DNA of 64,000 nt, taken from NCBI RefSeq assembly GCF_044324875.1, contig NZ_CP172185.1, one strand, 5' to 3'. The translations under genes were made by a program, and so were the position numbers. Below the pieces are notes generated by a model. It ran no database searches, was not told the origin of the DNA, and saw only the letters and a list, made by a program, of their open reading frames with translations. Shown here piece after piece: positions 3,604 to 44,968 of this stretch; within the stretch, counting starts at the first letter, position 1, and every line of letters begins with the position of its first letter. The stretch is from Escherichia coli. GTDB lineage: Bacteria; Pseudomonadota; Gammaproteobacteria; Enterobacterales; Enterobacteriaceae.

Positions 3604-3690
3604 TGTAGGCCGGATAAGGCTTTTACGCCGCATCCGGCAGCCGTTGCCTGATGCGACGCTCGCGCGTCTTATCAGGCCTACACAGCCCTT
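3604..3690. repeat. REP/BIME-type palindromic element (gccggatg / catccggc units)
   Basis: Inverted copies of the canonical REP core (ggccggataaggc...gccgcatccggca, tgcgacgc...gcgtcttatcaggcctaca) in the infB-rbfA spacer. Confidence 0.6.
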
Positions 3691-4151: not shown

Positions 4152-5095
4152 TGAGTCGTCCTCGTCGTCGCGGTCGCGACATTAACGGCGTGTTGTTGCT
4201 GGATAAACCGCAGGGTATGTCCAGCAACGATGCGCTGCAAAAAGTGAAACGGATTTATAACGCCAACCGTGCCGGGCATACCGGTGCGCTGGACCCGCTG
4301 GCGACCGGCATGTTGCCGATTTGCCTCGGGGAAGCGACGAAGTTTTCCCAGTACCTGCTGGACTCCGACAAACGCTATCGGGTCATTGCGCGTCTTGGAC
4401 AGCGTACCGATACGTCTGACGCCGATGGACAAATCGTTGAAGAACGTCCGGTAACCTTTAGCGCAGAGCAACTGGCGGCGGCACTGGATACTTTCCGTGG
4501 CGATATCGAACAGATCCCATCGATGTATTCAGCACTGAAATACCAGGGCAAAAAACTGTACGAATATGCGCGTCAGGGCATTGAAGTACCGCGTGAAGCG
4601 CGCCCGATTACCGTTTATGAATTGCTGTTTATTCGCCACGAAGGCAATGAGCTGGAGCTGGAAATTCACTGCTCAAAAGGCACTTATATCCGCACCATTA
4701 TTGATGACCTGGGTGAAAAACTCGGTTGTGGCGCGCATGTTATTTACCTGCGTCGTCTGGCGGTAAGTAAATATCCGGTTGAACGGATGGTGACCCTGGA
4801 ACATCTGCGTGAACTGGTTGAACAAGCCGAACAGCAGAATATTCCAGCCGCGGAGTTACTTGATCCATTACTGATGCCAATGGACAGTCCAGCTTCGGAC
4901 TACCCGGTGGTGAATCTTCCGTTAACGTCTTCTGTTTACTTCAAAAATGGTAACCCGGTTCGTACATCCGGTGCGCCGCTGGAAGGACTGGTTCGCGTTA
5001 CAGAAGGTGAGAACGGCAAGTTTATCGGTATGGGCGAAATTGACGATGAAGGCCGCGTCGCGCCTCGTCGCCTGGTGGTTGAATACCCGGCGTAA
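4151..5095 (+). CDS. truB: tRNA pseudouridine-55 synthase TruB (314 aa)
   Basis: Translation matches TruB; start overlaps rbfA stop (ATGA). Confidence 0.95.
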
Positions 5096-5106
5096 TGTTA
5101 ACCGTC

Positions 5107-5135
5107 TTGCGATAACAGGTCGCTACGAGTAGAAT
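5107..5135 (+). promoter_or_regulatory. Sigma70-type promoter candidate for rpsO (TTGCGA-N17-TAGAAT)
   Basis: Near-consensus -35/-10 hexamers with 17-bp spacing about 110 bp upstream of the rpsO ATG, overlapping the truB 3-prime end. Confidence 0.5.
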
Positions 5136-5147
5136 ACTGCCGCTTAA

Positions 5148-5513
<366 letters not shown>

Positions 5514-5529
5514 TTCTTGCGAGTTTCAG

Positions 5530-5703
5530 AAAAGGGGGCCTGAGTGGCCCCTTTTTTCAAGCTGACGGCAGCAATTCACTGGAAACTAATGTATTGTTGC
5601 TATGAATGATCTTCCGTTGCAGAGGTTCGCGCGGCTAATGAGAGGCTTTACCCACATTGGGCTGGGTTAGGGTTGTCATTAGTCGCGAGGATGCGCAGAA
5701 GAT
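5530..5703 (-). ncRNA. sraG: Antisense sRNA SraG (PsrO) in the rpsO-pnp spacer; position approximate
   Basis: Placement is from recalled K-12 synteny (SraG lies opposite the rpsO-pnp intergenic region); not verified from sequence signals. Confidence 0.4.
5532..5558 (+). terminator. rpsO intrinsic terminator
   Basis: gggggcc-tgagt-ggcccc hairpin followed by tttttt immediately after the rpsO stop. Confidence 0.7.
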
Positions 5704-5759
5704 CGGGTATTAACACCAGTGCCGTAAGGTACTGTCTAAGAAAGAGAAAGGATATTACA

Positions 5760-7895
5760 TTGCTTAATCCGATCGTTCGTAAATTCCAGTACGGCCAACA
5801 CACCGTGACTCTGGAAACCGGCATGATGGCTCGTCAGGCTACTGCCGCTGTTATGGTTAGCATGGATGACACCGCGGTATTCGTTACCGTTGTTGGCCAG
5901 AAAAAAGCCAAACCAGGTCAGGACTTCTTCCCACTGACCGTTAACTATCAGGAGCGTACCTACGCTGCTGGTCGTATCCCGGGTAGCTTCTTCCGTCGTG
6001 AAGGCCGCCCAAGCGAAGGCGAAACGCTGATCGCGCGTCTGATTGACCGCCCGATTCGCCCGCTGTTCCCGGAAGGTTTCGTCAACGAAGTTCAGGTTAT
6101 CGCCACCGTGGTTTCTGTTAACCCGCAGGTTAACCCGGATATCGTCGCGATGATTGGTGCTTCCGCAGCACTGTCTCTGTCTGGTATTCCGTTCAATGGT
6201 CCGATTGGTGCTGCCCGCGTAGGTTACATCAATGACCAGTACGTACTGAACCCGACTCAGGACGAGCTGAAAGAGAGCAAACTGGATCTGGTTGTTGCGG
6301 GTACTGAAGCCGCTGTACTGATGGTTGAATCTGAAGCTGAACTGCTGAGCGAAGACCAGATGCTGGGCGCAGTAGTGTTCGGTCATGAACAACAGCAGGT
6401 TGTTATTCAGAACATCAATGAACTGGTGAAAGAAGCCGGTAAACCGCGTTGGGACTGGCAGCCGGAGCCGGTAAACGAAGCGCTGAACGCGCGCGTTGCT
6501 GCACTGGCTGAAGCTCGTCTGAGCGATGCTTACCGCATCACCGACAAACAAGAGCGTTATGCGCAGGTTGATGTCATCAAATCTGAAACCATCGCGACGC
6601 TGCTTGCTGAAGATGAAACCCTGGACGAAAACGAACTGGGTGAAATTCTGCACGCTATCGAGAAAAACGTTGTTCGTAGCCGCGTACTGGCAGGCGAACC
6701 GCGTATCGACGGTCGTGAAAAAGATATGATTCGTGGTCTGGATGTGCGTACTGGCGTGCTGCCGCGTACTCACGGTTCTGCGCTGTTCACCCGTGGTGAA
6801 ACGCAGGCACTGGTTACTGCAACGCTGGGTACCGCTCGTGACGCACAGGTTCTTGATGAACTGATGGGCGAACGTACCGACACCTTCCTGTTCCACTACA
6901 ACTTCCCTCCGTACTCCGTAGGCGAAACCGGCATGGTCGGTTCTCCGAAGCGTCGTGAAATTGGTCACGGTCGTCTGGCGAAGCGCGGCGTGCTGGCAGT
7001 CATGCCGGATATGGACAAATTCCCGTATACCGTACGTGTGGTGTCTGAAATCACTGAATCCAACGGTTCTTCTTCTATGGCTTCCGTGTGCGGCGCGTCT
7101 CTGGCGCTGATGGACGCAGGTGTGCCAATCAAAGCTGCCGTTGCGGGTATCGCAATGGGTCTGGTGAAAGAAGGCGACAACTACGTTGTACTGTCTGACA
7201 TTTTGGGCGACGAAGATCACCTGGGCGATATGGACTTCAAAGTTGCGGGTTCCCGCGACGGTATCTCTGCATTGCAGATGGATATCAAAATTGAAGGTAT
7301 CACCAAAGAGATCATGCAGGTTGCACTGAACCAGGCTAAAGGTGCGCGTCTGCATATCCTGGGCGTAATGGAACAGGCGATCAACGCGCCGCGCGGCGAT
7401 ATCTCTGAGTTCGCTCCGCGTATCCATACCATCAAGATCAACCCGGACAAGATCAAAGACGTTATCGGTAAAGGCGGTTCTGTTATCCGTGCTCTGACCG
7501 AAGAAACTGGCACCACCATCGAAATCGAAGATGACGGTACTGTGAAAATCGCAGCGACCGACGGCGAGAAAGCGAAACATGCTATTCGTCGTATCGAAGA
7601 GATCACTGCAGAAATCGAAGTGGGCCGCGTCTACAATGGTAAAGTGACCCGTATCGTTGACTTTGGCGCATTTGTTGCCATCGGTGGCGGTAAAGAAGGT
7701 TTGGTACACATCTCTCAGATCGCTGACAAACGCGTTGAGAAAGTGACCGATTACCTGCAGATGGGTCAGGAAGTACCGGTGAAAGTTCTGGAAGTTGATC
7801 GCCAGGGCCGTATCCGTCTGAGCATTAAAGAAGCGACTGAGCAGTCTCAACCTGCTGCAGCACCGGAAGCTCCGGCTGCTGAACAGGGCGAGTAA
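5760..7895 (+). CDS. pnp: Polynucleotide phosphorylase (711 aa, UUG start)
   Basis: Translation from TTG at 5760 ([20 protein letters not shown]...) matches PNPase with RNase PH, KH and S1 domains; upstream in-frame extension of the track ORF is the leader. Confidence 0.93.

Positions 7896-44591: not shown

Positions 44592-44968
<377 letters not shown>

Follow-up and report, generated by a model that had tools for sequence, protein, structure and literature searches.

The short interval between rpsO and pnp in Escherichia coli raises the question of how signals on two opposite strands share one stretch of DNA, and which of the two strands carries the structure that selection has kept. In the window analyzed here (64,000 nucleotides of an E. 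coli genome, numbered from its first letter), the gene order on the plus strand is infB-rbfA-truB-rpsO-pnp-nlpI, according to both the open reading frame list and the K-12 annotation. When positions 5480-5800 were aligned to E. coli K-12 MG1655, 319 of 321 positions were identical, with zero indels; this alignment was the check proposed in an earlier sequence-only reading of the locus, and it places sraG at 5745->5530. The only differences from K-12, T for A at 5658 and G for A at 5660, both fall in the apical loop of the pnp leader hairpin and alter no predicted pair, and the allele that carries them is common in the species. With an 801-nt query surrounding the spacer, identity is 100% in many E. 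coli genomes and 99% or higher in 5412 of 5425. Window positions (w) convert to K-12 coordinates as K12 = 3316928 - w, a map derived from annotation coordinates. The spacer is the standard, well-studied E. coli version, and the feature it carries is already known. The best joint explanation, which we regard as nearly certain, is that we are looking at the rpsO-pnp intergenic control region of E. coli, with overlapping signals on both strands; we found no evidence that contradicts the rpsO-pnp/SraG assignment. Sequence identity, structures, covariation, and the family match were computed in this analysis, and cleavages, transcript ends, and regulatory effects are taken from the literature on the same sequence.

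Table 1. Genes, signals, and RNA elements of the rpsO-pnp region, in window coordinates
Feature	Position	Strand	Details and basis
rpsO CDS (ribosomal protein S15)	5244..5513	+	stop TAA 5511-5513; ORF list, K-12 and PGAP annotation
Conserved block GAGTTTCAG	5521..5529	+	just upstream of T1; likely RNase E cleavage site
Bidirectional Rho-independent terminator (T1 for rpsO, T for sraG)	5530..5557	both	fold, terminator scan, literature
P2 promoter region and transcription start	5562..5605	+	candidate -10 TAATGT 5587-5592; start probably at ~5601-5605
Leader hairpin R (RNase III substrate, PNPase autoregulation)	5607..5705	+	apical loop 5655-5662; MFE, covariation, literature
Small second leader hairpin, CAGUGCC-GUAA-GGUACUG	5717..5734	+	MFE and centroid structures
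pnp ribosome-binding site	5748..5762	+	SD AAGGAT 5748-5753; UUG start 5760-5762
pnp CDS (polynucleotide phosphorylase, 711 aa)	5760..7895	+	TTG start; ORF list, K-12 and PGAP annotation
sraG (psrO), 216-nt primary antisense transcript	5530..5745	-	K-12 b4449 mapped; cRT-PCR in PMC5029454
SraG core, roughly the old 174-nt annotation (SraG-S)	5530..5701	-	Rfam RF00082
SraG 5' extension, 42 nt	5704..5745	-	complement of the pnp leader segment immediately 5' of the SD
Candidate PSraG -10 hexamer TAATAT	5752..5757	-	6 nt upstream of +1 (5745); between pnp SD and UUG

For comparison with relatives, we used a DNA-pattern scan with pnp codons 9-24 and one genome per species, which returned at least 120 loci from an arbitrary sample of taxa. 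Among the matches listed, rpsO lies directly upstream of pnp in 116 of 120 loci, and TTG occupies the pnp start position in all 112 Enterobacterales loci, whose spacers are 239-398 nt long. In four Aeromonas loci, also among the matches listed, the spacer measures about 153 nt and the pnp N-terminus differs. Rfam SraG matches were found in each of the 19 Enterobacterales loci tested, at 83-176 bits and always antisense to pnp, and in none of the Aeromonas loci among the matches listed. The full-spacer MAFFT alignment contains many insert columns (880); the sub-alignment of the leader hairpin is clean. In some Enterobacteriaceae, inserts of about 100 nt separate T1 from P2, and we considered whether these are ERIC elements; no spacer among the matches listed matched either ERIC primer with up to 4 mismatches, and the idea was set aside.

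The two strands meet most literally at the end of rpsO. Folding and a terminator scan confirm the rpsO terminator hairpin that had been noticed from the sequence. Its stem (5535-5540 with 5546-5551, around a loop at 5541-5545) reads GGGGCC-TGAGT-GGCCCC at 5535-5551, so that 6 bp, all of them GC, are followed by UUUUUU on the plus strand (TTTTTT at 5552-5557) and by the weaker tract CUUUUCU on the minus strand, where the A-run AAAA at 5530-5533 is the complement of the SraG U-tract. The hairpin folds at -19.9 kcal/mol on the plus strand and -15.7 kcal/mol on the minus strand. In line with these features, T1 and the sraG terminator have been described as one bidirectional terminator to which SraG 3' ends map (PMC5029454). 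The consensus terminator scan calls the 5535-5551 hairpin as a minus-strand terminator. The earlier statement that neither promoter nor terminator signals were visible for the antisense RNA therefore needs amending as to the terminator, while its promoter half agrees with our scans, as described below. Both stem and T-run are near-invariant across 110 distinct Enterobacterales spacers among the matches listed, and the 8 nt that follow the stem contain a mean of 5.96 T on the plus strand versus 4.31 on the minus strand across taxa among the matches listed. Just upstream of the hairpin, positions 5522-5527 are at least 95% conserved in the 110 Enterobacterales spacers among the matches listed. 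RNase E is reported to cut upstream of T1 (PMC5029454), and GAGTTTCAG is likely the site of the cleavage that initiates rpsO mRNA decay.

Beyond the terminator, the plus strand carries the promoter and leader of pnp. Across the 110 spacers among the matches listed, the block ACTAATGTATTGTTGC at 5585-5600 is conserved, including the P2 -10 region at 5586-5599. Promoter scans of 5000-6000 and 5700-6200 returned only an rpsO P1-like site and no sigma-70 consensus match for P2 or PSraG, so the positions of both promoters rest on the literature and on inference. Back-calculation of the P2 start from the RNase III geometry gives 5601, and back-calculation from a 234-nt P2-to-RNX1 in vitro fragment, taken to end at ORF nucleotide 79, gives 5605; the start probably lies between these two values, with an uncertainty of about 4 nt.

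The long structured leader ending at a UUG start, which the sequence-only reading had described, is clearly present: positions 5598-5775 fold at -62.4 kcal/mol with z = -3.86, none of 200 shuffles folds as well, and the TTG at 5760 agrees with the K-12 and PGAP annotations. The segment 5603-5710, which spans hairpin R, folds at -47.6 kcal/mol, and the two arms of this hairpin, TTCGCGCGGCTAATGAGAG and TTGTCATTAGTCGCGAGGATG, are almost invariant in the 110 spacers among the matches listed. Cuts by RNase III in hairpin R, at +39 and +77 counted from P2, trigger PNPase-dependent decay of pnp mRNA (PMC5029454). Using 2-nt 3' overhangs and the 38-nt spacing, we place the cuts near 5640/5641 (RIII1) and 5678/5679 (RIII2); the leader remaining after these cuts would be 81 nt long. 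In the rnc/WT RNA-seq data of Gordon et al. (2017, PMC5371410), a peak at K-12 position 3311286 carries the label psrO, and pnp is named as the gene affected; the peak converts to window position 5642, inside hairpin R, assuming U00096.3 coordinates, an assumption that fits the label. What had been called an "RNase III autoregulation site" thus exists, as the literature and this peak indicate, although the wording was loose: it is an RNase III processing site on which the autoregulation of PNPase depends. The small second hairpin is poorly conserved in sequence across taxa among the matches listed, and 4 of the 6 SD positions are conserved at 95% or more in the 110 spacers among the matches listed. 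At this ribosome-binding site, a 30S toe-print has been observed 15 nt from the pnp UUG, and CsrA binds the processed pnp leader at two sites, one of them over the SD (PMC5029454).

On the opposite strand, K-12 sraG (b4449, 3311183..3311398) maps to 5745->5530 of the window with 214 of 216 nt identical, and its +1, -10 region, and terminator are identical in the window. The RNA read from 5745 to 5530 folds at -62.3 kcal/mol (z = -3.54). Rfam RF00082 matches 5701->5530 with 162.2 bits (gathering threshold, 50; E = 1.5e-29) over model positions 1-177 of 177, and this match sits between the end of rpsO at 5513 and the start of pnp at 5760, in an orientation opposite to both. A plus-strand SraG match (20 bits, E = 0.86) was dismissed as the palindromic hairpin seen from the other side. 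The family match, the b4449 mapping, and published work (PMC5029454) bear out the presence of antisense SraG in the spacer. Its extent had been given as 5530-5700; the 3' end stands, but the 5' end lies at 5745, and ~5700 reflects the superseded 174-nt annotation. This correction of SraG from ~5700->5530 to 5745->5530 (216 nt) is one of two useful outcomes of the analysis. Fontaine et al. (2016, PMC5029454) give the primary SraG transcript a length of 216 nt and a start 42 nt upstream of the earlier 174-nt annotation, the start being confirmed by a -10 mutation that lies close to the pnp SD and abolishes the 216-nt RNA; SraG species of ~216 and ~190 nt were seen in K-12 strains by Northern blot and cRT-PCR. 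The +1 is T at 5745, in agreement with the "underlined T" in a figure legend of the same paper (PMC5029454). An antisense transcript of ~216 nt from 5745->5530 is predicted in the present strain as well. TAATAT, read 5757->5752 and lacking a good -35, is the candidate PSraG -10 and fits the published remark that the -10 mutation is near the SD. Separately, we observed a 58-aa minus-strand open reading frame, 5824->5648, that begins upstream of the SraG +1.

Published experiments describe what SraG can do to the message it overlaps. The 30S toe-print disappears and pnp mRNA falls with full-length SraG but not with a version that lacks its first 42 nt, so these 42 nt are required for both effects (PMC5029454). 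SraG alone is cut by RNase III at mirror-image sites, and the SraG-pnp duplex gains new RNase III sites (PMC5029454). Mutation of the SraG promoter raises pnp mRNA and PNPase only ~1.3-fold, and SraG abundance is low (PMC5029454); on these two grounds, the antisense arm of pnp control is quantitatively weak. SraG has also been reported among ProQ-associated cis-antisense RNAs (PMC5391140), and it binds Hfq with a sub-nanomolar to nanomolar Kd (PMC5029454). Such Hfq binding would suit an RNA that acts mainly in trans on unlinked mRNAs, with the pnp overlap incidental, as reported in Yersinia pseudotuberculosis, where SraG is said to regulate YPK_1206-1205 and to alter 16 proteins. In E. coli, however, ten predicted targets and total protein labeling were unchanged and deletion of Hfq was without effect, and the Yersinia target operon has no homologues outside the genus (PMC5029454). 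We therefore consider a mainly trans-acting role very improbable.

We also considered which strand carries the selected structure. The hairpin R alignment comprises 53 species drawn from the matches listed, and its RNAalifold consensus has 27 pairs, of which 9 show compensatory double changes. In this alignment, 96.8% of the hairpin R cells are paired, compared with 37-48% in slid controls, and none of 500 shuffles reaches the covariation score. Read as antisense RNA, the same cells pair at only 79.3%. Cells that pair only on the sense strand, as G·U, number 258, versus 7 A·C cells that pair only as antisense (53 species among the matches listed), and several of the G·U pairs, such as 5634·5683 and 5644·5673, are conserved, becoming A·C mismatches on the antisense strand. 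The mean free MFE is -48.3 kcal/mol for the sense and -31.1 kcal/mol for the antisense RNA, the sense fold being the more stable one in all 53 species among the matches listed. As a control for the bias that comes from defining the structure on one strand, the count was limited to pairs common to both E. coli MFE structures in 109 sequences among the matches listed; the sense strand still leads, 139 to 31. The T-tract asymmetry at the terminator leans to the same strand. We conclude that the leader hairpin shows covariation, that selection acts on its pnp (sense) strand, and that sense-strand elements account for the conservation behind the strong Rfam SraG scores.

These results bear most directly on the possibility that the selected element is the sense-strand control region only (the rpsO terminator, P2, and the RNase III hairpin). 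SraG would then be a low-level antisense by-product with little control over PNPase, born from an AT-rich SD-to-start spacer that resembles a -10 box, and what the Rfam SraG family captures would be, for the most part, the pnp leader in mirror image. The G·U excess, its bias-controlled version, and the uniformly more stable sense folds are what such a view expects, as is a minus-strand U-tract both weaker and less conserved than its plus-strand counterpart. Conservation is low across 5694-5747, and nowhere in the spacer is it lower than in the complement of the functional 42 nt at the SraG 5' end (110 spacers among the matches listed). At the candidate PSraG -10, T(-12) is kept in 110 of 110, the key A(-11) in only 43 of 110, and T(-7) in 104 of 110 sequences among the matches listed, figures that are confounded by overlap with the pnp SD-to-start spacer and so cannot be interpreted either way. 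The small effect of the promoter mutant and the failure to find trans targets in E. coli (PMC5029454) also favor a by-product. Yet the 216-nt transcript is real and promoter dependent in E. coli, SraG blocks the pnp toe-print in vitro, its overexpression lowers pnp mRNA, and an older mutation defective in autoregulation maps to the SraG -10 (PMC5029454). Binding to Hfq (PMC5029454) and association with ProQ (PMC5391140) likewise speak against a by-product. Nor does the poor conservation of 5704-5745 count against function, because antisense pairing remains perfect whatever the sequence. Weighing both sides, we judge the sense-only explanation unlikely, and prefer a control region that includes a weak antisense arm.

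Outside E. coli, most Rfam SraG matches reflect the rpsO terminator and the pnp leader seen from the opposite strand and are not independent evidence of an sRNA, and the sense-strand constraints that explain the conservation mean that it adds no support for an antisense function. It is possible, though somewhat doubtful, that the database "SraG" across Enterobacterales is mostly the reverse complement of the rpsO terminator plus the RNase III hairpin of the pnp leader, with the antisense RNA a lineage-restricted or marginal add-on. If this is true, covariance-model assignments at this locus say nothing about the existence of the sRNA. In any case, an Rfam SraG match in Enterobacterales is not proof of an expressed antisense RNA, and beyond the species in which SraG RNA has been detected it is no evidence of one; this caution for annotation is the second useful outcome. 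The comparative result is a caveat rather than a discovery, and it offers no argument against the mechanism in E. coli.

Taken together, the features of the spacer and the published experiments indicate how the two strands operate in E. coli. Transcripts from the rpsO promoter would end at the T1 hairpin (5530-5557) or continue past it into pnp, and P2 would start a monocistronic pnp mRNA at ~5601-5605; both pnp transcripts would fold into hairpin R (5607-5705). RNase III would cut both arms of R, and PNPase would then remove the short 5' strand still base-paired with the leader. Removal of this strand would expose the pnp message to RNase E and to CsrA-mediated translational repression, and PNPase would in this way restrict its own production from UUG 5760. 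On the other strand, a weak antisense promoter, situated between the SD and start codon of pnp, would fire at 5745, and the resulting 216-nt SraG would end at the same hairpin, used in the other direction. Pairing of SraG with the pnp leader would be perfect; the first 42 nt of SraG, covering the region that abuts the SD, would prevent 30S loading, and the duplex would create new RNase III sites. The net antisense effect would be a modest reduction of pnp expression.

The locus is a textbook example of a major exoribonuclease controlled post-transcriptionally in several layers; it carries little weight as a discovery. It matches E. coli K-12 sraG (b4449, psrO; RF00082) in locus, strand, extent, terminator, and promoter region, and differs only by the substitutions at 5658 and 5660. 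With the rpsO-pnp RNase III autoregulation leader studied by Portier, Regnier, and co-workers (PMC5029454), it shares the same hairpin, near-invariant arms, UUG, and SD, with no substantive difference; the cut positions given here are calculated ones. Antisense or intergenic RNAs also occur at the equivalent rpsO/pnpA locus in Listeria (RliD) and Enterococcus (ref41), compared here by description only, and RliD is reported to lack high sequence homology with SraG (PMC5029454). The pairs AsflhD/flhD and GadY/gadXW likewise combine perfect complementarity to a 5' untranslated region with RNase III cleavage of the duplex. Unlike in those systems, the pnp leader is an RNase III substrate even by itself, and SraG shares its terminator with the upstream convergent gene.

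The pnp leader hairpin cleaved by RNase III is among the conserved parts of the rpsO-pnp spacer that we compared among loci. Its arms (window positions 5626-5648 and 5672-5693) are nearly invariant throughout Enterobacterales, and this conservation far exceeds what base pairing alone would need. Between positions 5480 and 5800 the window and K-12 differ solely at 5658 (T/A) and 5660 (G/A); both substitutions lie within the apical loop of the hairpin, and the allele that they form is common to many E. coli genomes. The 3' arm contains the motif AGGAUG, a plausible candidate for the upstream of the two sites bound by CsrA, the repressor of pnp translation, because it would be single-stranded once RNase III and PNPase have processed the leader. 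At the hairpin apex, Dickeya oryzae (L022, 1524-1681) carries an insertion of about 50 nt, with the conserved arms kept.

In some Enterobacteriaceae (Kluyvera, Pseudocitrobacter and Enterobacter sp.), an insert of about 100 nt separates the bidirectional rpsO terminator, T1, from the -10 region of the second pnp promoter, P2. TATAAT is the P2 -10 in three insert-bearing loci (L041, L050 and L085), and the inserts gave no match to ERIC primer sequences. In Erwiniaceae (Pantoea, Erwinia, Tatumella and Winslowiella), an additional 60-77 nt adjoins the rpsO stop codon and precedes T1; this segment is predicted to fold into a hairpin, at -13 to -27 kcal/mol. In Aeromonas (L017, L032, L099 and L108), rpsO adjoins pnp across a spacer of just 153-156 nt, TTG is absent at the position of the enterobacterial start, and L108, the single Aeromonas locus searched, had no match to the Rfam model of the antisense sRNA SraG.

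An rpsO-pnp locus of enterobacterial type was also observed in a contig labelled Martelella alba (L087, NZ_SZPQ01000001.1), with the conserved leader hairpin and an S15 that is 91% identical to that of E. coli. Martelella alba is an alphaproteobacterial name, and the label looks taxonomically wrong.

Positions of additional RNA elements in the window and of extra segments in rpsO-pnp loci
Feature	Location	Strand	Remarks
S15 leader (Rfam RF00114)	window 5186-5300	+	117.6 bits; overlaps rpsO start
naRNA4 (Rfam RF02564)	window 3608-3678	+	78.7 bits; infB-rbfA spacer
RNase P RNA, bacterial class A (Rfam RF00010)	window 44592-44968	+	318.6 bits
T1-P2 insert	L011, L041, L050, L085		between equivalents of window 5558 and 5600
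Erwiniaceae extra segment	L057 1718-1793		equivalents in L014, L029, L068, L110, L027

Among the other RNA elements of the window, the naRNA4 match has a similar counterpart in E. albertii (L005, 4039-4109). The S15 leader is the autoregulatory element bound by S15, and matches to it lie upstream of rpsO in the other scanned loci as well.
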